From the NCBI GenBank assembly GCA_944393465.1, contig CALYAG010000001.1, positions 1,709-65,708 of the forward strand: a stretch of DNA of 64,000 nucleotides, in the 5' to 3' direction. Made by a program: the position numbers and the translations under genes. Position 1 is the first letter of the stretch; each line of letters opens with the position of its first letter. Origin of the DNA: an uncultured Clostridia bacterium. GTDB lineage: Bacteria; Bacillota; Clostridia; TANB77; CAG-508. Under the pieces are notes generated by a model. It saw only the letters and a program-made list of their open reading frames with translations. It was not told where the DNA came from and did not search any database. Positions 5,771 through 60,530 of the stretch are shown piece by piece.

Positions 5771-6127
5771 ATGGCAAAAAATACAAATAGACTTGGTAGA
5801 GTTAATGAAGAGCTAAAAAAAGAAATAAGCCAAGTTATAAATTATGAATTGAAAAATCCAGATGTAACTGGTATGATTAGTGTAACTAAGGTCAAAGTCA
5901 CTCCTGACCTTAAGTATGCTAAAGTTTATGTTAGTGTTCTTAACCCAAAAAACTTAAGTAAAACTTTAAGCGGACTAAAAGAAAGTGCAGGCTTTATTAG
6001 AAGTAGAGTTGCTCAAACAGTAAACTTAAGAATTACACCAGAATTAGTATTTGAATATGATGATTCAATTGAATATGGGGAGAGAATTGACGCAATACTT
6101 AAAGAACTTAAAAAGGATGAGAAATAG
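5771..6127 (+). CDS. rbfA: ribosome-binding factor A
   Basis: 118 aa in the conserved position after infB. Motifs R..R..EE..KEIS and P.L.F.YD are present. Confidence 0.9.
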   Translation: MAKNTNRLGRVNEELKKEISQVINYELKNPDVTGMISVTKVKVTPDLKYAKVYVSVLNPKNLSKTLSGLKESAGFIRSRVAQTVNLRITPELVFEYDDSIEYGERIDAILKELKKDEK

Positions 6128-6174
6128 GAACACACTATAAAATATATTTAAAATATTTTTATCAATTATTAAAA

Positions 6175-6305
6175 GCTCCAATATATGTTCTCTAACATTT
6201 CAAGTGAGCGCAGGCAACGTAGGAGCTTAAGCGTAACGCGCGAGCTGGAGCGAGACTTGTTCGAGCGACCCGCGTGACGAAATAAGAGAGAATGTATATT
6301 GGAGC
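6175..6305. repeat. GC-core palindromic intergenic element (long variant, opposite orientation)
   Basis: AT-rich inverted arms (gctccaatatatgttctct / agagagaatgtatattggagc) surround a GC-rich core. The core contains gagctggagcgag...cgagcgacccgcg, the reverse complement of the core seen at 29497-29583 and 54902-54988. It lies inside the operon, between rbfA and nrnA. Confidence 0.7.
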
Positions 6306-6332
6306 AGATATTAATTTTGAAAAGGAGATAAA

Positions 6333-7286
6333 ATGTCAACTTTAGATGAAATATTAAAGGAAATAAAAAAAGCAAATGACATCATAATCTTAACACACAA
6401 TAATCCAGATGGTGATGCAATAGGCTCAAGTTTAGCTACATATATTGCATTAAAAGAAGCAGGAAAAAACGTAGAGGTAGTAATACCTAAAATGCCTAGA
6501 ATATACAATTTTTTACCATGCGCAGATGAGGTAAAAAAAGAGGCAAGTAAGCAAAGCTATGACTTAGCAATATCTTTAGATTGTGCAACAATAAAATTAT
6601 TAAATGGCTGGTCAAAATATTTTGAAGATTCTACAAAAAGAATTGTTATAGACCATCATAGCACAAATGATATGTATGGAGATTTAAACTATGTTGAATT
6701 AGGTTCACCAGCATGCGCACAAGTGCTATATGTGTTATTCAATTATTACAAAATTAAAATAACACCAGAAATAGGAACATGCATTATGACTGGCATAATA
6801 ACAGATACAGGAGGATTCCAATATTCAGCAGTATCAAAGGAAACTTTTGAAATAGCAGCAGAATTACTAAGTTCAGGCGTAAATATTTCAAAAATATACA
6901 AAAAAGTATTTGCAACACATACAAGAGGAAATTTTGAACTTAGAAAAATAGCACTTCAAAGAATGGAATTCTTAGAAGACGGCAAAGTAGCGTTTACATA
7001 CATAACTAAAGCAGATGAAGAAAAAGTCCATGCAGAAGAAGGCGACATAGAGGGCATAGTAAATGAAGGAAGAAACATAGAAGGAGTTGAAGTTTCAATA
7101 TTTTTACATGAAATAGATGAAGGAATGAGAGTTTCAACTAGGTCAAACGACTATGTAAATGTTTCAGATGTATGCCTAATGTTTGGTGGCGGAGGCCATG
7201 TACATGCTGCAGGCGCAACAATGCAAGGTACACCAGAGCAAATAAAGGAAAAGTTACTTAAAGAAATAAAACTTCAATTAAAATAG
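6333..7286 (+). CDS. nrnA: DHH/DHHA1 phosphoesterase (NrnA-type oligoribonuclease/pAp phosphatase)
   Basis: 317 aa with motifs H.NPDGDAIGS, IDHH, DTGGF and GGGH. Confidence 0.8.
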   Translation: MSTLDEILKEIKKANDIIILTHNNPDGDAIGSSLATYIALKEAGKNVEVVIPKMPRIYNFLPCADEVKKEASKQSYDLAISLDCATIKLLNGWSKYFEDSTKRIVIDHHSTNDMYGDLNYVELGSPACAQVLYVLFNYYKIKITPEIGTCIMTGIITDTGGFQYSAVSKETFEIAAELLSSGVNISKIYKKVFATHTRGNFELRKIALQRMEFLEDGKVAFTYITKADEEKVHAEEGDIEGIVNEGRNIEGVEVSIFLHEIDEGMRVSTRSNDYVNVSDVCLMFGGGGHVHAAGATMQGTPEQIKEKLLKEIKLQLK

Positions 7287-8221: not shown

Positions 8222-8450
8222 GATAAAAAAACACACCCCACATTAGCCGTAAGATGAGAGAAATTTTAAGAGCCTGTTTTCACAGGTGGGTGTCTTGTTG
8301 AATGCTCCTGGGTTTCTTACTTAAAAAGCAAGCATACACGCCACATCCAAAGGCGGACTCCCTTTAATCTAATTTGTTGGTTCTAAAATTCCAGTCTACA
8401 CGCACCACGCAGGGATTTTTACTACTTTTTACAATGCTTCTGTCCTCAAA
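8222..8450 (-). ncRNA. candidate structured ncRNA of unassigned class
   Basis: A GC-rich patch in an AT-rich intergenic gap with no ORF. The minus-strand reading is G+U rich, so G-U pairs are possible only on that strand. It contains hairpins (cctgtgaaaacagg; cttgc-tttttaa-gtaag) and ends in the stem acaccca...tggggtgt followed by a T7 run. It is convergent with truB. Confidence 0.4.
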
Positions 8451-8632: not shown

Positions 8633-9478
8633 ATGAAAAAAAGATCTTTAATTGTAGATGAAAAAACTATAAAAAGGAATAAATTTATTACAAAACTAAT
8701 TATAACAATTGCATTACTTGTATTATGTATTGTTACAATTGTGGAAATTTTAAAAGTATATAAAATTAATGATGACTTTTCAAATTATATTGATGAGTTA
8801 TCAAGGCTAAATTCTAAAACAGTTTTTAGTATAGATAGAATTTATTTGTATAGTAGTGCAGATGCAACAAGTAATGAAACTACTAAACCAGTGTGGGATT
8901 TAAACATATTTCAATTTACAGACATAGCCTTGTTTATAAATAATAGAGCAGATGAAGGCGTAACTTATGAAAATACAATAAAAGAATTAAAAATAGATAA
9001 TATAAAATTTAACAATTTACAAAGTGGAACTCCAAGTTTATATTACAAGAATGTAAACGATTTTGCTAAAATGACTAATATAGATGAAAATAAAATAAAT
9101 GATTCTTTAGAATTTAATGTTATTAATTCTGGAGATGCAGATTATAGTAAACCTGTTATTTACAGTAACTGTCAAAACCCTATAACACTTGAATATGTTA
9201 ATTCCAATATGGAAGAAAATACCGTAATTTCAGATATTTCAACACCACTAACATATGATGGTAGTCTTCTAAAAAAGGGAGGAATTTTGCTTAGCCAAAT
9301 GGAATGCACACTTTCTTTTACTATAACAATAATAAATAATTATAATCAAAAATTTGTTGCAACTATTTATATAGACATTCCTTTAGAAGACAGTATGAGT
9401 GGAGAAAACATTTATGATGGTAAATTGATTAAAAATATTGAAAATACAAATTTAGTTAAATTTATCAGAGTTGAATAA
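8633..9478 (+). CDS. hypothetical membrane-anchored protein
   Basis: 281-aa ORF with a GGAGG RBS and one N-terminal TM helix (LIITIALLVLCIVTIVEIL). I recognise no family. Confidence 0.5.
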   Translation: MKKRSLIVDEKTIKRNKFITKLIITIALLVLCIVTIVEILKVYKINDDFSNYIDELSRLNSKTVFSIDRIYLYSSADATSNETTKPVWDLNIFQFTDIALFINNRADEGVTYENTIKELKIDNIKFNNLQSGTPSLYYKNVNDFAKMTNIDENKINDSLEFNVINSGDADYSKPVIYSNCQNPITLEYVNSNMEENTVISDISTPLTYDGSLLKKGGILLSQMECTLSFTITIINNYNQKFVATIYIDIPLEDSMSGENIYDGKLIKNIENTNLVKFIRVE

Positions 9479-9549
9479 AAAGGAAAATTACATTAGATTT
9501 ATAAAATAATCTACATTAATAATTAATGTTATATTTGAAAGGAACAAAA

Positions 9550-10434
9550 ATGACAATAAAACAGGCATTGAACTTTGCAAAACAAAGCCTTGACAGTATA
9601 GAGGCAAAAACATTGATAAAACATACACTAAAAAAAGATAATATGTATATTACAATTAATGAAGATAAAGAGATTACAAAAAATGAAGAGCTTGAATTTA
9701 TAAGTTCGTTAAAAAAAATAAAAGAAGGTTATCCCTTACAATATATAACACATCATCAAGAATTTATGGGATTGGACTTTGAAGTGAACGAAGATGTACT
9801 AATACCTCAGCCAGATACAGAAGTGCTTGTAGAAAATACAATTAAATTAGTATTAGAAAATTTTTCTAAAAATAGTTCTGATGATTTTCAAAGGCAAAAT
9901 GTAATAACAAATGGGATAAGAGGCGAATTGAAAAAGAATAAAAGTACAACCAATTTAAAAATTTTGGATTTGTGCACAGGAAGCGGTGCTATAGCAATTG
10001 CCTTAAAAAAATATTTGCCAAATATTTTAGTATTTGCTTCAGATATAAGTGAAAAAGCCTTAAAAATAGCGCAAAAAAATGCCAAGAACAATAATGTTGA
10101 GGTAAGCTTTATAAAATCAAATATGTTTGAAAATATAAATAATAAGTTTGATTTAATAGTTTCAAATCCGCCATATATTAAGTCGAGTGAAATTTCAAAG
10201 TTACCAAAGCAAGTGCAAAACGAACCTAAGATAGCTTTAGATGGTGGTAAAGACGGACTAGATTTTTACAAAATAATATATAATGAGGCGCCAAAATTTT
10301 TGAATGAAAAAGGTATAATACTTTTAGAAATTGGTTATGACCAAGGCTTAGCTGTAACAAATATATTTAAAAATTCAAAGATTATTAAAGACTATGCTGG
10401 TAATGACAGGGTAATTGTATGGTTTGCAAAATAA
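9550..10434 (+). CDS. prmC: peptide chain release factor N5-glutamine methyltransferase
   Basis: Contains the SAM motif DLCTGSGAIA and the NPPY motif (VSNPPYI). The ATG at 9550 has a better RBS than 9526. Confidence 0.85.
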   Translation: MTIKQALNFAKQSLDSIEAKTLIKHTLKKDNMYITINEDKEITKNEELEFISSLKKIKEGYPLQYITHHQEFMGLDFEVNEDVLIPQPDTEVLVENTIKLVLENFSKNSSDDFQRQNVITNGIRGELKKNKSTTNLKILDLCTGSGAIAIALKKYLPNILVFASDISEKALKIAQKNAKNNNVEVSFIKSNMFENINNKFDLIVSNPPYIKSSEISKLPKQVQNEPKIALDGGKDGLDFYKIIYNEAPKFLNEKGIILLEIGYDQGLAVTNIFKNSKIIKDYAGNDRVIVWFAK

Positions 10435-44784: not shown

Positions 44785-45624
44785 TTATGTGCGAAAGTCA
44801 GCTTCATGCTGTGAGTATTTTTTAATACCTAGCCGTAAAGGGCTTATCTTTTTTATATCAAATGGATTTTTCTTACTGTAAAAATTCTTCCATCCCTTTT
44901 TGTAATCATACAAATCTACAATTAATCCAAATTTTTCTTTCAAAAATTTATAATATCTCATATCATTTTGTAAAAAAGCTCTTTGTACTGCCCAATTACA
45001 ATAATCTACAATTTGTAAGCATACTTCTCCTGATGGTGTTTGTGGTAATATTTTCTGTGTAGAATCAATTGTAGTATTTAATTTGCTTTCGGTATAATTC
45101 AAAGCTTTTTGTATAGCTTGTTCTAGTGGAGCTTGTCTTTTCTTACTTCCTCTAGTTGCTATATAAATATAGTTATTATTAGATAAATGTAATATATTTT
45201 TAAATAAATTTGTTATCAAAGAATCATATAGTTCTTGTGTATTACCATTAAATTTTTTAAAAACATGCTCTGTTTTTCTTGCGACAACAATATTACATGA
45301 AAAAGGTAAATCTTTTAATAAAGTAAAGACTTTATATCTAACCTCAGGACAATCATCTTTTGCATGAAATGATATCCTTGTTTTACTCATAGAAGGTATG
45401 TCTTTTAAATATTCATCATTTAATATTTCATATTTTAATTCATTAAGTTTTTTTCTTAAAAATTCTGGTTCAGTTGTTCTTATAAATCCCATAAGTAATA
45501 TTTTTGACGCTCCATTTTCATGCCCAACAATCCATTCACCTTTTCTATTATAAAAAGTTGTATCTCCGGATTCATCTACAAAAAAGTAATTATTATTATA
45601 TATATTTTCTTTCATATAACTCAT
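44785..45624 (-). CDS. DUF3800 family protein
   Basis: 279 aa with the N-terminal YFFVDESGDT motif characteristic of DUF3800. It contains an in-frame CGG at 44833-44835. Confidence 0.55.
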   Translation of the reverse strand: MSYMKENIYNNNYFFVDESGDTTFYNRKGEWIVGHENGASKILLMGFIRTTEPEFLRKKLNELKYEILNDEYLKDIPSMSKTRISFHAKDDCPEVRYKVFTLLKDLPFSCNIVVARKTEHVFKKFNGNTQELYDSLITNLFKNILHLSNNNYIYIATRGSKKRQAPLEQAIQKALNYTESKLNTTIDSTQKILPQTPSGEVCLQIVDYCNWAVQRAFLQNDMRYYKFLKEKFGLIVDLYDYKKGWKNFYSKKNPFDIKKISPLRLGIKKYSQHEADFRT

Positions 45625-45790: not shown

Positions 45791-45866
45791 TGGAGCCACC
45801 AGCGAGAATCGAACTCGCGACCTACAGGTTACGAATCTGTTGCTCTACCAACTGAGCTATAGTGGC
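45791..45866 (-). tRNA. tRNA-Thr (anticodon CGU)
   Basis: Manual fold: GCCACTA-TA-GCTC-AGTTGGTA-GAGC-A-ACAGA-TT-CGT-AA-CCTGT-AGGTC-GCGAG-TTCGATT-CTCGC-TGGTGGC-T-CCA. Confidence 0.9.
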
Positions 45867-45997
45867 ATAAAACAAATATATTATAGTATATAAAATATTT
45901 TAAATCAAGATATTTTTACTTTTAAAATAGATATTTATGTTGAAATTATAAATAAAATAATATAAAATTATTGTAAATGAATATCAGGGAGATAATT

Positions 45998-47008
45998 ATG
46001 CTAAAAGAATTAAAAATAGAATTAACTAATAGATGCTCAAGAAACTGCATACATTGTTCAAGCAGTGCTACTAGTAATGCTAAAAATATTAAAGAGTTAG
46101 AATATGAAGATGTAAAGAAAATAATACTAGAAGCAAAGCAAATGAATGTTACTGATGTGGTATTTACGGGAGGAGAACCACTAAAATATGAAAAGCTAAA
46201 TGATTTAATTAAACTAACAAAAGAATTAGAAATCAATTCTGCAATTTATACATTTGATTATAGGAATGATGAAAACATAAATAAATATAAAAAACTTATT
46301 GATAGTGGACTAAATAAAATAATATATTCGCTAGCAGACAGTTTATCAAACCAAAAAGATTCTTCAACATACACACATATAGAATTTTTTGATAAATTAT
46401 TAAAAAATTCAAATTGTAAATTAGGATTTCATTATACAATTTCAAAAGACTCAATTTCACAAATGCAGACAATAGTAAATGCAACAATGGAAGAATTTCA
46501 TAATAGGAAATATTTCGAAAAAATTAGCTTACTTAGATTTGTTCCACACGGTAAAGGCAGTAAAAATATGGACTTAACTAGAGAAGAATTGAATCAAATA
46601 AAAGACTTTTACTTAGAATCAAAATACAAAGACAAAATAAGGTTAGGAAGTCCTTGGAATTTATTAAATATAAAAAATAGTCCTTGTATTATTGCGGATG
46701 AAATTATGATAATTGGATTTGATGGTATTGCATATCCATGTGATTCTATAAAATATTTTACAAAATTGGGCATTAGTGGGAATATAAAAGAAAATACACT
46801 AAAAGAAATGTATAATTCAGAATACTTTAAATTATTGAGAGAGCTAAATACAGAAAATAGTTGTAAATCATGCAAAGACTATAAAATTTGTAAGAGTGGT
46901 TGTATTGGTCAAAAAATAATTGCAGGATATAATAAAAATGAAGATATATACACAAACTTAAAAAGATGTATTAATTCAAAAGACCCTAAATGCATGAAAA
47001 CAAATTAA
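45998..47008 (+). CDS. radical SAM protein with a SPASM/twitch-like C-terminal Cys cluster
   Basis: Contains CSRNCIHC (CX3CX2C), the GGEPL motif, and C-terminal ...YPCDS...C.SC.DY.IC.SGC. The ATG at 45998 follows an AGGGAG RBS. Confidence 0.8.
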   Translation: MLKELKIELTNRCSRNCIHCSSSATSNAKNIKELEYEDVKKIILEAKQMNVTDVVFTGGEPLKYEKLNDLIKLTKELEINSAIYTFDYRNDENINKYKKLIDSGLNKIIYSLADSLSNQKDSSTYTHIEFFDKLLKNSNCKLGFHYTISKDSISQMQTIVNATMEEFHNRKYFEKISLLRFVPHGKGSKNMDLTREELNQIKDFYLESKYKDKIRLGSPWNLLNIKNSPCIIADEIMIIGFDGIAYPCDSIKYFTKLGISGNIKENTLKEMYNSEYFKLLRELNTENSCKSCKDYKICKSGCIGQKIIAGYNKNEDIYTNLKRCINSKDPKCMKTN

Positions 47009-47020
47009 AAGAGGTATGAA

Positions 47021-47962
47021 ATGAAAAAAAGACAAGAAGTTTATGACTTATATTGGTATTTCGCTTGTGAAAGACAAAATATATTTTTGCGCAAACTTGA
47101 AGGTAAAGAACCACCATGGACAGAAGATGAAATTTTGCAGGAATACAAGTTTTGTAATAGTTATAGAGTAAATGATAGAGTAAGTCAATATTTATTGAAG
47201 AATGTAATATATAATGGAAAAACATATGATAATGATGATAATATTTTTAGAATAATACTATTCAAGTTATTTAACAAAGAGCAAACATGGGGATTATTGT
47301 TAGAAAACATAGGAGACCCTACATTAAAAAATTTCAATAGAAAAACATACTCAGAAGTATTAGAAAAGGCTATATCTAATGGAATAAAAATATATAATGA
47401 TGCATATATATCATGTGCCAATAAAGCATTTGGATTTGATAGAAAACATGATAATCATTTAGCTTTACTACAAAAAATGTTCTTGGAAGACAAAATGCAA
47501 GATAAAATTTTAGAATGCAAAAAAATGAAAGAGGCATTTGAAATTATAGAATCGTATCCTCTAATTGGAGATTTTATGGCATACCAGCTAGTAACAGATA
47601 TTAATTATAGTGAAGTAGTTGATTGGAAAGAAAATGAATTTACAGTAGCAGGACCAGGTTCATTAAGAGGAATAAATAAGTGTTTTATTGACAAAGAGAA
47701 TATGAGTAATGAAGATATTATAAAATATATGTATGAAAACCAAGACAAAGAATTTAAAAGATTGAATTTGAATTTTAAAAGAATAGGAAATCGAGAGCTT
47801 CAGCTAATAGATTGCCAAAATATTTTCTGTGAATTAGACAAATATTGTAGGCAAGCACTTCCAAAATTAAAGTCTAATAGGAAAAAAATCAAAAAGAAGT
47901 ATATACCTAAAACATCTAAAATAGAATATATGTATCCTCCAAAATGGGGAGTGGAATTGTAA
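47021..47962 (+). CDS. putative DNA base hypermodification protein (aGPT-Pplase-like; sometimes annotated 'nucleotide kinase domain-containing')
   Basis: The N-terminal block LYWYFACERQNIFLRKLEGKEPPWTEDEILQEYKFCNSYRVNDRVSQYLLKNVIY matches my recollection of the alpha-glutamyl/putrescinyl thymine pyrophosphorylase superfamily signature (W.F..ER..I.......PWT.D.IL..Y+F.N.YR..DRVSQYL). No P-loop is present. Not verified by search. Confidence 0.45.
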   Translation: MKKRQEVYDLYWYFACERQNIFLRKLEGKEPPWTEDEILQEYKFCNSYRVNDRVSQYLLKNVIYNGKTYDNDDNIFRIILFKLFNKEQTWGLLLENIGDPTLKNFNRKTYSEVLEKAISNGIKIYNDAYISCANKAFGFDRKHDNHLALLQKMFLEDKMQDKILECKKMKEAFEIIESYPLIGDFMAYQLVTDINYSEVVDWKENEFTVAGPGSLRGINKCFIDKENMSNEDIIKYMYENQDKEFKRLNLNFKRIGNRELQLIDCQNIFCELDKYCRQALPKLKSNRKKIKKKYIPKTSKIEYMYPPKWGVEL

Positions 47963-47975
47963 AGGAGAAAAAATT

Positions 47976-48992
47976 ATGGATAATATCAAATGGGGATTTA
48001 TAGGATGCGGAAAAGTAGTAGAAAAGAAAAGCGGTCCAGCTTTTAATACTGCCAATAATAGTTCAATTTATGCAGTAATGAGAAGAAACTTAGACAATGC
48101 AAAAGTTTCAGCTGAAAAATTAGGAGCACAAAAATGGTATGATAATGTAGATGATTTACTTAAAGATAATGAAGTAAATGCTGTATATATTGCAACACCA
48201 CCAGGATTGCATTTAAAGCAAGCCATAAAATGTTGCCAAGCAAAAAAAGCAACATACATAGAAAAGCCTTTTGCTAGAAATTATAAAGAGGCATTAGAAA
48301 TTACTGAAATGTTTGAAAAAGCAGGAGTCCCACTATATATCGCTCATTATAGACGAGCATTACCAAAGTTTGTTAAGATTAAGCGATTATTGGAAGAGGG
48401 TATAATAGGTAAAATATGTGAAGTAGATTTTAGACTTAACAGAAAATATAATAAAGAAGAAATTTTGAATACTTGGCTATATAATACAGAACTTTCAGGC
48501 GGAGGAAAGTTTTATGATATAGCACCCCATTCTATTGATATAATGGTATATTTATTTGGAAAATTTACAAAAATAAATGGAATAGCGACTAATAATAGCA
48601 AAGAATATAATGTAGAAGATGTAGTTGTAATGTCTTTTGAAACAGAAAATGGAGTAATAGGAACAGCAAATTTTAACTCAATTGCATTTGATAAAAAAGA
48701 TAAAATTTTAGTCTATGGAACAAACGGAACAATGGAATTTTCAATGCATGGTAATGATGATATAGTAATAAAAAATGAAAATGGAGAAGAAAAATTACAT
48801 ATTGATAATCCAGATATTATACAAGAAGATATGGTTCATGAAGTAGTAGATTCATTAATTACTGGAAAGCATCTAAATACATGCTCTGGAAGAGAAGCAC
48901 TTGAAACATACAGAATAATTGACGAGGTACTAAATGATTATTATCATGGAAGAGAAGACGAATTTTGGAAAAGGGAAAATACTTGGAATTAA
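47976..48992 (+). CDS. Gfo/Idh/MocA family oxidoreductase
   Basis: Contains the Rossmann motif GFIGCGKV, the EKP motif (YIEKPFA), and the typical alpha/beta C-terminal domain. Confidence 0.85.
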   Translation: MDNIKWGFIGCGKVVEKKSGPAFNTANNSSIYAVMRRNLDNAKVSAEKLGAQKWYDNVDDLLKDNEVNAVYIATPPGLHLKQAIKCCQAKKATYIEKPFARNYKEALEITEMFEKAGVPLYIAHYRRALPKFVKIKRLLEEGIIGKICEVDFRLNRKYNKEEILNTWLYNTELSGGGKFYDIAPHSIDIMVYLFGKFTKINGIATNNSKEYNVEDVVVMSFETENGVIGTANFNSIAFDKKDKILVYGTNGTMEFSMHGNDDIVIKNENGEEKLHIDNPDIIQEDMVHEVVDSLITGKHLNTCSGREALETYRIIDEVLNDYYHGREDEFWKRENTWN

Positions 48993-49080
48993 AAAATAAA
49001 GCTAATTGGATTGAACCAGTTAGCTTTTTACGTTAGCCCTATTTAACAAAAACAATATTACACAGAAAAATCGATTTACC

Positions 49081-49875
49081 CTATTCAGAAAACAACAATT
49101 TCTTCAAATCAAAATAATTATCTCCAATTTCACAAACAATATCAAATTGCTTTCTAATAGCTTCTAATTCAGACTTGTTTTCATCACATAAGAAGCAATT
49201 AGTATAAACATGGTCATGCTTAGATTTATCAACCATTCTTAAATCACTAATTTGGTCACCTAGTAGTAAAACATTTTTTCTATTACTTAATTTTTCTTTT
49301 ATATTATCTGGCAAAGAAACCTCATTTTTATTTAAGCTATGAATAATATTAGTATCTACACCAACAGCGATTCCGTCTTTAAAAATAATTTTGTTACTAC
49401 TAACATAAATATTATCATAGTAGCAACCATTCAAAGTAAGAAAGGCCTCAATAAAATTTCCAATTCCTGCGCTAATAATAATTAATGGGATATTATTATC
49501 ATGTAAAAATTCAATAAATTCTTTAGCACCTGGTCTAAATTCCATTATTCGTAAATCAGTAGCAGCATTATTAAAAATTTCTTCAGTGATTTTGTATTTA
49601 ACAAATAATCCAATATGCTTTTGGTACCATTCCTTCATCTTAGAAGCTTTGTATTCATAATCTAATGATTCATCAACTTCAATAGGCCTGTAATAGTCAT
49701 AAAATCCTTGTCTTTCCTTTTTATATTCTTTTGGAACAAGTGGACTTTCAGATAAAATAGACCATGAAGTTTTACTACTGCCATTTGTTATTGTTCTATC
49801 AAAATCAGCTACAACAAATAAATTAGATAAATCCTTAATAGGAAGAATTTTTCCTATCTCATCTTTGATAATCAT
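49081..49875 (-). CDS. HAD-superfamily hydrolase, pyrimidine 5'-nucleotidase (UMPH-1)-like
   Basis: Contains the DxDxT motif (ADFDRTIT), a cap region, IISAG, and GDQISD. The ATG at 49875 follows an AAGGAG RBS; the track ORF starts at a GTG at 49896. Confidence 0.55.
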   Translation of the reverse strand: MIIKDEIGKILPIKDLSNLFVVADFDRTITNGSSKTSWSILSESPLVPKEYKKERQGFYDYYRPIEVDESLDYEYKASKMKEWYQKHIGLFVKYKITEEIFNNAATDLRIMEFRPGAKEFIEFLHDNNIPLIIISAGIGNFIEAFLTLNGCYYDNIYVSSNKIIFKDGIAVGVDTNIIHSLNKNEVSLPDNIKEKLSNRKNVLLLGDQISDLRMVDKSKHDHVYTNCFLCDENKSELEAIRKQFDIVCEIGDNYFDLKKLLFSE

Positions 49876-50082
49876 TGAGCATTTCTCCTTTAACACCTAT
49901 AATTTCAGTTTAATTATATTATAAACTGAAATGAAAGTAAATATAAGTAAATTACTTTGACTATATAAATATTGAAAAAATAAAAAGTATTTAAACTATT
50001 TACAACTAAAAATTTATTATGATAGAATTCATTTAAGCAATGTTGTTTCAATCAATACAATAATTTGTTATGAGGTGAGGCA

Positions 50083-50808
50083 ATGATTATCGAATTACCA
50101 AAAGAGCACATTATTCTTAGTGATGAGAAAGGAGAGGTAAAAGACGGAATTCTTTACTTGCATCGGAATATGTTTGAAGAAGCGATGTTTGAATTGACGT
50201 ACATTCTACATGGCCACGTCTGCTATTATTGCCAAAAGCCTATTACAGGTATAGAAGACAAAGAAAAACAAGACGGAGTACTATGGAAATCCTTAGACCA
50301 CCTTATACCGAGAGAATTTGGTGGTGTTAGTATTACCAGCAACTTAAGACCTTGCTGTAGTGTTTGCAACCGTAAAAAAGGTAGTATGTATCCAAACGAA
50401 TTTGAAAAGTTTCAGCATATTGTAAAATCAACAAAAGGTCGAGAAAGAAAAGCAGAGGTGAAAGATTTCAATGAAGAATTAAGTTTAATCCAAACCAAAA
50501 GGAGATTTGGCGAATTGCCATCTCTTCCTGAGGAGTGGCTAGAACAAGGAAATCACAAATCCGTGTATGTAAATTTTAGGTTAGAGGACCCGATTGGAAC
50601 TGTATACAACAGAATTGCTAGATTTTATAGAAAATATAAAAGAATTCCATATCCAATAGTTGTAAGCGCAAATAAATTCCTGCTTGATGGTTTCAATTCT
50701 ATACTTTTTATGAAAATAGAAGGTGTAAGAAAGATTGATGTCATTAAGTTGGAAAATGTGATTTATGACGGAATAGTTGATTATACTTCTCAAGTGTTAG
50801 GTAAGTGA
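50083..50808 (+). CDS. HNH endonuclease fused to a degenerate ParB/Srx-like C-terminal domain
   Basis: The HNH region is CYYCQKPI...DHLIPREFGG....NL.PCCSVCNRKKG. The C-terminus, PIVVSANKFLLDGFNSILFMKIEGVRKIDVIKL, resembles the ParB N-terminal domain without DGHHR. It has an in-frame CGG-A at 50164-50167. Confidence 0.7.
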   Translation: MIIELPKEHIILSDEKGEVKDGILYLHRNMFEEAMFELTYILHGHVCYYCQKPITGIEDKEKQDGVLWKSLDHLIPREFGGVSITSNLRPCCSVCNRKKGSMYPNEFEKFQHIVKSTKGRERKAEVKDFNEELSLIQTKRRFGELPSLPEEWLEQGNHKSVYVNFRLEDPIGTVYNRIARFYRKYKRIPYPIVVSANKFLLDGFNSILFMKIEGVRKIDVIKLENVIYDGIVDYTSQVLGK

Positions 50809-50931: not shown

Positions 50932-51573
50932 ATGTTTAATTATAAAAAAAGCATAAAAATATTAAAAATACTATATAAAATATTTATCATAACATTTTTA
51001 ATAAGCATTTTGAAAAATGCAATTGTATTAGCAACCGGTCAACCGCAAATTCCTACTGCAAATGTGAGAAAAATAAATACTAGCACGGAAGAATATTATA
51101 CATCAGTGTATATTGCTATAACAATTTTATTTATAACTATAAATGTAATGGTCACAAATTTTATTGCAATGGTATATCAAAAGAAAACAAATAATAAAGT
51201 AAGCAAAGTTTCAAAAATTATTTTGATAATATGCATATTATTAATGATATTTTCGATTATTTTGCCTAATATGGTTGCTTTGATATTTGGAAAAACAAGG
51301 ACTGTATATTTAGGAGGGTCAGGAGAACCGATAAGTTATTTTACAGTAGAAGCATGCTATGGACTTTTACTAATTTTACTTATTTGCCTTATTATTCTAG
51401 GAATTATAATGATTTATCAAAAGATTAAATATAAGAAATTGTCAACAATACAAAAATACATAACTTTGAGTTGTGCTATAGTGTGTGTAATGCTAATTAT
51501 AGAATATAGTTGTATGAAATTACTAGCGGATAATACTTTCTTTAATGGAATTGATATTTCTATATATTATTAA
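50932..51573 (+). CDS. hypothetical polytopic membrane protein
   Basis: 213 aa with 5-6 hydrophobic helices. No recognisable family. Confidence 0.45.
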   Translation: MFNYKKSIKILKILYKIFIITFLISILKNAIVLATGQPQIPTANVRKINTSTEEYYTSVYIAITILFITINVMVTNFIAMVYQKKTNNKVSKVSKIILIICILLMIFSIILPNMVALIFGKTRTVYLGGSGEPISYFTVEACYGLLLILLICLIILGIIMIYQKIKYKKLSTIQKYITLSCAIVCVMLIIEYSCMKLLADNTFFNGIDISIYY

Positions 51574-57950: not shown

Positions 57951-58034
57951 GCGGATGTGGCGGAATTGGCAGACGCGCTGGTCTTAGGAACCAGTACCAA
58001 TGGTGTGGGGGTTCAAGTCCCTTCATCCGCACCA
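57951..58034 (+). tRNA. tRNA-Leu (anticodon UAG)
   Basis: Manual fold: acceptor GCGGATG/CATCCGC, anticodon stem CTGGT/ACCAG with loop CT-TAG-GA, a long variable arm, T-loop GGTTCAAGTCC, and an encoded CCA. Confidence 0.9.

Positions 58035-58610: not shown

Positions 58611-60530
<1,920 letters not shown>

Follow-up and report, generated by a model that had tools for sequence, protein, structure and literature searches.

A radical SAM/SPASM enzyme coupled to a PF18723 protein in gut bacteria: a candidate pyrimidine-modifying gene pair

Introduction

A cluster of closely packed genes on the chromosome of an uncultured Clostridia bacterium raises the question of which of its members belong together, and why a radical S-adenosylmethionine (SAM) enzyme should be encoded beside a relative of phage DNA hypermodification proteins. 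The whole stretch of DNA that was analysed, hereafter the window, comprised 64,000 nt (GenBank assembly GCA_944393465.1, contig CALYAG010000001.1, positions 1,709 to 65,708 of the forward strand). A first-pass annotation, made from the letters alone, had described three same-strand genes beside tRNA-Thr, separated by 12 and 13 nt and coding for a radical SAM/SPASM enzyme, a 313-aa protein and a Gfo/Idh/MocA oxidoreductase, and had combined them with a nucleotidase and an HNH nuclease into a candidate host-encoded DNA (perhaps thymidine) hypermodification system. All of these genes were found in the layout described. Comparative analysis reduced the conserved unit to a two-gene operon, the radical SAM/SPASM gene followed by the gene of the 313-aa protein, which belongs to the Pfam family PF18723; the features of the operon and its present 3′ end were as follows.

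45998..47008, + strand: radical SAM/SPASM enzyme of 336 aa, gene 1 of the conserved pair; a second possible start codon (ATG) lies upstream at 45977
47021..47962, + strand: PF18723 (HMUDK_hel) protein of 313 aa, gene 2 of the conserved pair
47976..48992, + strand: Gfo/Idh/MocA NAD(P) oxidoreductase with the Pfam N- and C-terminal domains; lineage-specific insertion
48998..49029, no strand given: terminator-like hairpin with T-run, 12-bp stem, −14.7 kcal/mol, located where the Gfo and nucleotidase genes converge

Results

The radical SAM and PF18723 genes form a conserved pair

Relatives of the 313-aa protein were surveyed in 80 genomic loci (55–97% identity to the window protein), and their flanks were screened for all genes found in this region of the window. 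The closer relatives (64–97%) came mostly from gut metagenome-assembled genomes (MAGs) labelled Bacilli, 'Tenericutes', 'Clostridium sp.' or Erysipelotrichaceae, and the eight most distant loci, which hold the nearest relatives outside Bacilli, belonged to Nostocaceae (55–58%). The radical SAM gene lay immediately upstream of the PF18723 gene in 23 of the 64 assessable Bacilli-type loci. A second survey started from the radical SAM protein and covered 80 metagenomic loci aligning to it at 59–99% identity, with contigs extending far enough to be assessed in 69 cases; a PF18723 gene followed directly downstream in every one of these (69/69). The gap, recorded for 68 loci, measured 6, 7, 8 or 16 nt. 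The tight coupling of the two genes noticed in the first-pass annotation was thus borne out. The linkage runs one way, as the radical SAM gene was never seen without PF18723 and PF18723 was often seen without the radical SAM gene, and the radical SAM enzyme is accordingly regarded as an add-on. A radical SAM protein of 23% identity encoded without PF18723 (L229) probably lies outside the family or at its edge.

In a neighbour-joining tree, the radical SAM-coupled PF18723 proteins fell into a crown group and, scattered among solo proteins, at least four further separate lineages. One human-gut metagenome contig (L209) carried two PF18723 paralogues of 83% identity, at 1596–2555 and 6010–6951, one solo and one coupled: the solo copy followed a gene for a YgjP-like protein and one for an RluA-type pseudouridine synthase, the coupled copy stood directly after a radical SAM gene and had Arg at the otherwise invariant G211. 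PF18723 proteins of 67–77% identity were also met in MAGs labelled Saccharibacteria/Nanosyncoccus or Muribaculaceae (L054, L069, L037, L060, L066, L070), which reflects either mis-binning or horizontal transfer.

No close viral versions of the radical SAM protein were found, an alignment-based scan yielding only L088, L099 and L100 besides L229. These three loci, far removed from the clade of the window, show the pairing again, independently and in reversed gene order. In L088, an M78 peptidase gene, a gene without assigned function and a fusion of a TMK-like kinase with PF18723 precede a radical SAM protein 29% identical to that of the window; in L099 and L100, genes for a ThsB-type TIR protein, Nmad2 and PF18723 are followed by a radical SAM/SPASM protein of 25% identity and a 521-aa protein without assigned function.

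The Gfo gene is a recent insertion

The oxidoreductase gene has its own AGGAG ribosome-binding site and was seen only in four contigs identical to the window; among the 160 loci surveyed, it stood beside no homologue of the pair elsewhere. Two relatives with PF18723 proteins 97% and 96% identical to that of the window (L005 and L006, respectively) had no Gfo gene, and two metagenome contigs (L141 and L142) were devoid of exactly the window segment 47962–49081, their DNA being 97% identical upstream and 94–96% identical downstream of it. In L141, L142 and L006, a hairpin terminator, different from that at 48998..49029, came right after the PF18723 stop codon and was followed by the convergent nucleotidase gene. 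Because the indel is exact and the contigs are near-identical, the Gfo gene is a recent insertion of about 1.1 kb that entered a two-gene operon at its 3′ end, i.e. a lineage-specific gene and not a conserved partner. A conserved trio of radical SAM, PF18723 and Gfo genes, as had been proposed, was rejected by this survey of neighbourhoods. The two-gene operon would have ended at its own terminator until the Gfo gene was inserted in the lineage of the window.

The 313-aa protein is a full-length PF18723 member

The 313-aa protein matched PF18723 (HMUDK_hel) with an E-value of 7.3e-108 and 360.6 bits (cut-off 25) over profile positions 2–280 of 281. Homologues are named 'alpha-glutamyl/putrescinyl thymine pyrophosphorylase clade 1' (aGPT-Pplase clade 1) in phage records, and an E. 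coli homologue is a 'putative DNA base hypermodification protein' at NCBI, so that the superfamily assigned in the first-pass annotation was correct and could be specified as clade 1. It did not extend to clade 2: no Pfam match to PF18724, the family of amino-acid:DNA transferases (ADDT), was obtained even at E ≤ 10. Clade 2 comprises M6 gp51, ViI gp247 and PaMx11 gp46, of which M6 gp51, a glycine:DNA transferase, was characterised by Lee et al. (PMC8989533), and both clades were placed by Aravind and colleagues in one DNA-glycosylase-like helix-hairpin-helix group (PMC8989533). In phage M6, gp51 belongs to PF18724 and gp55 to PF18723. Alignment of the window protein with M6 gp51 using hhalign was not significant (probability 0.13), and a jackhmmer search for gp51 relatives in IMG/VR loci gave one weak match, too few for a clade 2 profile.

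An AlphaFold2 model of the protein, computed from an alignment of 24 homologues, reached a mean predicted local distance difference test (pLDDT) value of 93.5. In Foldseek searches, this model superposed on that of the 637-aa SP10 5-hydroxymethyldeoxyuridine (5-hmdU) DNA kinase with a template modelling (TM) score of 0.79 and on models of PF18723 proteins of PhiW-14, phiRSL1 and other phages with TM scores of 0.62–0.78 (E 4e-14 to 2e-8 for the SP10, PhiW-14 and phiRSL1 members); according to the predicted structures, the window protein shares the fold of these phage members. ADDT-annotated BFVD models were matched weakly and in loose superposition (E 0.035–0.09, TM 0.42–0.53, probability 0.99–1.0). 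None of 47 PDB matches at E ≤ 10 was named as an ADDT, and sequence searches of the PDB retrieved no related solved structure.

The conserved residues were followed by adding five distant PF18723 members (phage M6 gp55, the E. coli DS-4 protein described below, L088, L100 and one cyanobacterial homologue) to alignment A1. Identity was retained in 14 of the 25 columns invariant in A1, namely R18, F44, N46, R49, D52, D193, G211, G213, G217, D264, C270, E271, K274 and R277. Since an invariant Cys-Glu pair is accompanied by a core of Arg, Asp and Lys, the PF18723 protein is most likely an enzyme and not merely a helical scaffold or passive accessory, as judged from these residues. C270-E271 recalls, by analogy, the Cys and nearby Glu that are essential in clade 2 enzymes (PMC8989533), with which, however, no significant hhalign alignment of the dyad was obtained.

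The radical SAM/SPASM enzyme resembles maturases without belonging to a described type

The identity proposed for the first gene held: the product scored above the Pfam cut-offs for Radical_SAM (2e-14), SPASM (3e-9) and Fer4_12. Its start at 45998 is preceded by a GGGAG ribosome-binding site and agrees with 336-aa gene calls on other contigs. The motif CSRNCIHC supplies the three cysteines of a CX3CX2C arrangement (C13, C17, C20); these as well as C230, C248, C289, C292, C298, C302 and C332 were kept in 24–25 of 25 homologues, an eighth auxiliary Cys in 22 of 25. The closest NCBIfam similarities were to PqqE, MftC, sactipeptide and other maturases, all under the cut-off; the protein scored far below the cut-off of every equivalog model (PqqE, MftC, anSME, AhbD, viperin and others), e.g. 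70 versus 381 bits for PqqE. With the SPASM maturases PqqE, MftC, anSME and AhbD it shares the CX3CX2C motif, the full set of SPASM cysteines and a similar length; it differs from them in these equivalog scores and in that its invariable partner is a nucleic-acid-type enzyme and not a precursor peptide. Matches to PADLOC pVip models (E ~1e-8; PADLOC gives no cut-off) were weak and are read as generic radical SAM similarity. The parallel drawn to the radical SAM isomerase of the M6 pathway did not amount to homology: compared with M6 gp53, which has no SPASM domain, the SPASM-type enzyme of the window gave a best E-value of 0.39.

PF18723 in phages, conflict systems and host defence

Clustering of PF18723 at 90% identity gave 6,468 clusters, and at 50% there were 4,323 representatives; the family includes fusions with TMK-like kinases, MazG plus MazG_C, MT-A70 and a glycosyltransferase. 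A thymidylate synthase (TS)-like gene, homologous to that of DS-4, was located within 6 kb of the PF18723 gene in 21 of 55 IMG/VR loci (e.g. L087, L097, L101, L105–L121). Characterised transferases were mostly missing from such viral contigs, only one of the 55 loci holding even a weak relative of M6 gp51.

The phage clusters for thymidine hypermodification (M6, ViI, SP10, PhiW-14; Lee et al. 2018, 2021, PMC8989533) contain PF18723 as M6 gp55 and in the SP10 5-hmdU DNA kinase; M6 gp55 has the Cys-Glu and the Arg/Asp core in common with the window protein, and the M6 pathway includes the radical SAM protein gp53. The window differs from these clusters in its chromosomal, non-viral setting, in the low identity of its PF18723 protein to the phage proteins (27–31%) and in lacking a deoxyuridine monophosphate (dUMP) hydroxymethylase, a 5-hmdU DNA kinase (PF18748), a PF18724 transferase and a dedicated pyridoxal phosphate enzyme. 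A tblastn search of the 64-kb window found no homologue of a TS-like hydroxymethylase, P-loop kinase, M6 gp51 transferase, M6 gp54, DS-4 kinase, TMK-like kinase, Nmad2, TIR or MazG_C protein, in line with the absence of a dUMP hydroxymethylase and a 5-hmdU DNA kinase reported at first reading, and the 313-aa protein itself contains no kinase domain. PF18723 takes its name from its fusion to, or proximity to, a 5-hmdU DNA kinase. The window protein may resemble the ADDT enzymes weakly in fold, and a Glu close to a conserved Cys occurs in both, perhaps not as equivalent pairs; it differs in giving no sequence match, and an ADDT needs 5-phosphomethyl-dU from a kinase, which was not found in the window.

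Host-encoded PF18723 proteins are already known from conflict systems. DS-4 ('NTTI') of E. coli, an experimentally validated defence system of the DefensePredictor study (Science 2026, PMC13092281), consists of genes for a TS-like enzyme, a deoxynucleoside monophosphate (dNMP) kinase, a PF18723 protein (WP_087900470.1), a TIR protein and Nmad2 (PMC13092281). Aligned along its entire length, WP_087900470.1 shared 31% identity with the window protein (E 3e-33) and kept the Cys-Glu motif; both are host-encoded, standalone PF18723 proteins. The two systems differ in that DS-4 has the TS-like enzyme, dNMP kinase, TIR protein and Nmad2 and no radical SAM enzyme, and that PF18723 is the only DS-4 component in the window; L100, with TIR, Nmad2, PF18723 and radical SAM/SPASM genes, bridges the two architectures. 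Nucleotide-centric conflict systems built from aGPT-Pplase, MazG, MazG-C, dUTPase, NMAD and UDG components have been predicted and are unvalidated (Burroughs et al. 2015, as cited in PMC13092281). The Nostocaceae relatives sit in clusters of this kind, without a radical SAM gene, and none of the partner genes found there occurs in the window. In seven of these loci (L077–L083), a conserved cluster of PF18723, DUF1643, MazG/MazG_C and a dCTP-deaminase-like gene was seen, the partners lying ~1–4 kb downstream of PF18723.

Full-text literature searches returned no description of a SPASM-type radical SAM enzyme coupled to PF18723, although an earlier computational mention may exist, and the pair is uncharacterised, as had been stated at first reading.

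Discussion

Proposed function of the pair

We put it at about an even chance that the radical SAM–PF18723 pair is an uncharacterised, radical SAM-tailored module that modifies pyrimidines in DNA or nucleotides, probably in the context of a conflict. This proposal draws on the family membership and fold of the PF18723 protein, the operon structure, the one-way linkage, the independent recurrence of the pair in reversed order, the catalytic-looking core, the family links of PF18723 to pyrimidine-nucleotide and DNA-modification genes, the PF18723 protein of DS-4 and the position of the pair in a small variable region next to a tRNA gene, with the DUF3800 gene described below. By analogy with clade 2, the PF18723 protein would attack a pyrimidine of the thymine or 5-hydroxymethyluracil (5-hmU) type in DNA or in a nucleotide, possibly through addition of the Cys at C6. 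The radical SAM enzyme would either tailor the product of PF18723 or make a radical-generated activated substrate, which in the latter case would replace the hydroxymethylase–kinase route of phages and DS-4. The most likely role of the module would be in phage–host conflict, by marking or altering DNA or nucleotides; the defence role entertained in the first-pass annotation is plausible because a PF18723 protein belongs to the validated system DS-4. Going further, a radical-initiated pyrimidine modification of a previously unknown type, made without hydroxymethylase or kinase and placed either in the cell's own chromosomal DNA or in an antiviral nucleotide, is possible and should be regarded as rather doubtful.

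Several points weigh against the proposed pyrimidine-modifying role. The usual targets of SPASM enzymes are peptides or proteins, not nucleic acids. We know of no biochemical activity for any PF18723 protein, and the present Pfam label of the domain, 'helical', implies that it may be an accessory one. In the one pathway with a PF18723 protein that has been reconstituted, that of M6, gp55 was dispensable for the step that forms the 315-u glycinyl-thymidine product (Lee et al., PMC8989533), and the kinase domain of SP10 gp186 stays active after a C-terminal deletion, i.e. without its PF18723 domain (PMC8989533). The best PDB fold matches of the window protein were the HhH-GPD glycosylases Ogg and AlkA, at a non-significant E-value of ~0.5. 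No hydroxymethylase or kinase that would supply 5-hmU was found in the window, TET/JBP proteins not having been searched for specifically, and no convincing residue distinguished radical SAM-coupled from solo PF18723 proteins. In syntenic genome pairs PF18723 evolved no more slowly than its flanks. PF18723 genes, many of them solo copies, were often embedded among housekeeping genes (YbaK-like, YgjP-like, ABC transporter and RluA genes), contexts that look more like those of a stable chromosomal gene than of a mobile defence gene.

Unusual conservation or horizontal transfer of PF18723 was also considered; the idea of exceptional constraint was dropped, as the conservation in the syntenic pairs was no higher than that of the flanks.

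Alternative explanations

The housekeeping-like contexts invite the view that PF18723 is a housekeeping nucleic-acid enzyme of reduced gut Bacilli, acting in glycosylase-like repair or surveillance of 5-hmU or damaged pyrimidines or in RNA modification, with the radical SAM enzyme as an optional tailoring partner and no part in conflict. Stable synteny and apparently vertical inheritance in several lineages agree with it, as do the housekeeping neighbours and the glycosylase-type fold matches, albeit at the E-value given above. It is nevertheless held to be unlikely, since the partners of the family elsewhere belong to conflict or nucleotide modification (TIR, Nmad2, MazG_C and TS-like genes, kinases and phage clusters), DS-4 has been validated as a defence system, the presence of the radical SAM gene is patchy and the locus of the window lies in a variable region. 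A YgjP-like metallopeptidase gene (PF01863) recurred beside solo PF18723 genes in separate lineages (L068 and L073–L076, at ~8941–9612; L209, at 76–621).

The radical SAM/SPASM enzyme could instead be a maturase of the PF18723 protein itself, e.g. introducing an anSME-like oxidation or a cross-link at a conserved residue and thereby activating or altering an enzyme that is left unmodified in other lineages. The usual substrates of SPASM enzymes and the resemblance to PqqE, MftC and sactipeptide maturases speak for such a role, and the one-way dependence of the radical SAM gene on PF18723 and the tight translational coupling of the two genes fit it. On the other hand, every maturase model scored far under its cut-off, no residue was specific to coupled PF18723 proteins, and a solo and a coupled paralogue in one genome were 83% identical, so that maturation of PF18723 appears improbable.

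The model developed from the first-pass annotation is a larger one, in which the radical SAM, pyrophosphorylase-like and Gfo proteins build a thymidine hypermodification, the nucleotidase adjusts the thymidine monophosphate pool and an HNH-ParB nuclease restricts unmodified DNA. The two further genes it invokes are the following.

49081..49896, − strand: UMPH-1-like HAD protein of the pyrimidine 5′-nucleotidase family (PF05822, E 4e-47), convergent with the operon
50083..50808, + strand: HNH nuclease with HNH_5 and HNH domains (Pfam)

The HAD assignment and the convergent orientation of the nucleotidase gene were confirmed by these data. For the nuclease, described as HNH fused to a degenerate ParB-like domain, the HNH part stood. 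The C-terminal part found no Pfam match at E ≤ 10 and none when PDB sequences were searched with a profile; in Foldseek searches with an AlphaFold2 model of the protein (pLDDT 88.7) it matched the N-domain of pNOB8 ParB (E 0.04, probability 0.99, 53 columns, root-mean-square deviation 2.5 Å) and, as a second weak match, SbnI, so that a ParB/Srx-like fold is weakly supported by the model.

All genes of this larger model lie side by side, co-transcription of the first three is probable given the short gaps (12 and 13 nt) and the ribosome-binding sites, and the radical SAM, PF18723 and HNH genes occur together in L001–L006 and L141, to which the possible ParB/Srx-like fold may be added. Against this, the Gfo gene is a clean indel, missing from near-identical contigs and from all other loci. 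The nucleotidase gene was present only in L001–L004, L006, L141 and L142, was missing from L005, and was not found near the pair outside the species group of the window among the surveyed relatives and metagenome loci. The HNH gene stood beside the pair only in L001–L006 and L141; its family comprised 26 proteins only, and homologues of 42% and 33% identity were encoded among housekeeping genes, next to LeuRS and Mur ligase genes or to SpoIID and AddA-like helicase genes, with no PF18723 or radical SAM gene nearby. As neither the Gfo, the nucleotidase nor the HNH gene accompanies the pair outside one species group, comparative genomics largely refutes this model, and it is considered very improbable. 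The nucleotidase and the HNH protein were rejected as partners of the pair, and a reading as a modification-restriction system of the Dnd or Dpd type was not supported, no nuclease or ParB-type partner being conserved with the modification genes.

That the radical SAM and Gfo proteins form a sugar or cofactor pathway with BtrN- or inositol-type chemistry and PF18723 as an unrelated passenger is scarcely credible, for although some SPASM/twitch radical SAM enzymes are sugar dehydrogenases and the Gfo protein resembles inositol and sugar dehydrogenase models (E 6e-30, far under the cut-off), the radical SAM gene always precedes PF18723 and never Gfo in the 80 metagenome loci, the Gfo gene is a recent insertion, and no sugar-metabolism genes recur in the loci.

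Implications of the pyrimidine-modifying reading

PF18723 spans hypermodifying phages, cyanobacterial nucleotide-conflict clusters and a validated E. coli defence system. The pair represents a minimal two-gene form of its use, strictly coupled on the radical SAM side and abundant in human and animal gut metagenomes. If the pair does carry out a radical-initiated pyrimidine modification, it would provide the first biochemical function for PF18723 together with either a new base, epigenetic or self-marking, in the DNA of Bacilli that are abundant in the human gut, or an antiviral nucleotide. In both cases hypermodification chemistry would extend from phages to common uncultured gut bacteria, and a new base in host DNA could alter the behaviour of that DNA in sequencing and restriction. 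With two genes and clear catalytic-looking residues, the pair is a tractable handle and the simplest available route to the function of PF18723, and natural controls exist in the solo and coupled paralogues and in the strains with and without Gfo.

Setting of the locus and other features of the window

The region from 45.8 to 51.6 kb is set in an AT-rich chromosome (29% GC) and is bordered by a suf operon (SufC-like ABC ATPase, SufBD, SufS, NifU) on one side and a P-type ATPase gene on the other, in agreement with the chromosomal setting first assigned to it. With genes that vary among relatives given in brackets, the order is NifU, (DUF3800), tRNA-Thr, the conserved pair of radical SAM and PF18723 genes, (Gfo), (nucleotidase), HNH, (membrane protein), P-type ATPase. 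The remaining features of the region were as follows.

44785..45624, − strand: DUF3800 protein (PADLOC DUF3800_VII, E 7e-25), between the NifU gene and tRNA-Thr
45791..45866, − strand: tRNA-Thr(CGT), identified with ARAGORN and Rfam, directly upstream of the radical SAM gene, at the edge of a small variable region
45940..45968, + strand: promoter-like site TTGAAA-17-TAAAAT upstream of the radical SAM gene (consensus scan, 10 of 12 matches)
50932..51573, + strand: small polytopic membrane protein with ~5 hydrophobic segments, a variable neighbour

Promoter-like sites were equally frequent in shuffled sequence of this AT-rich DNA, and the site at 45940..45968 therefore carries little weight. The membrane protein matched no family and its gene was missing from L006. 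The DUF3800 gene was missing from the closely related contig L005; the neighbourhood of tRNA-Thr, this gene included, is a small variable, defence-flavoured region.

Outside the locus region the window also holds three tRNA genes. Right after tRNA-Leu (57951–58034), a large serine recombinase with Resolvase and Recombinase domains is encoded at 58611–60530 (+), a possible sign of the border of an integrated element. A 6S RNA (Rfam RF00013, 104.9 bits) was located at 8231–8418 (−).

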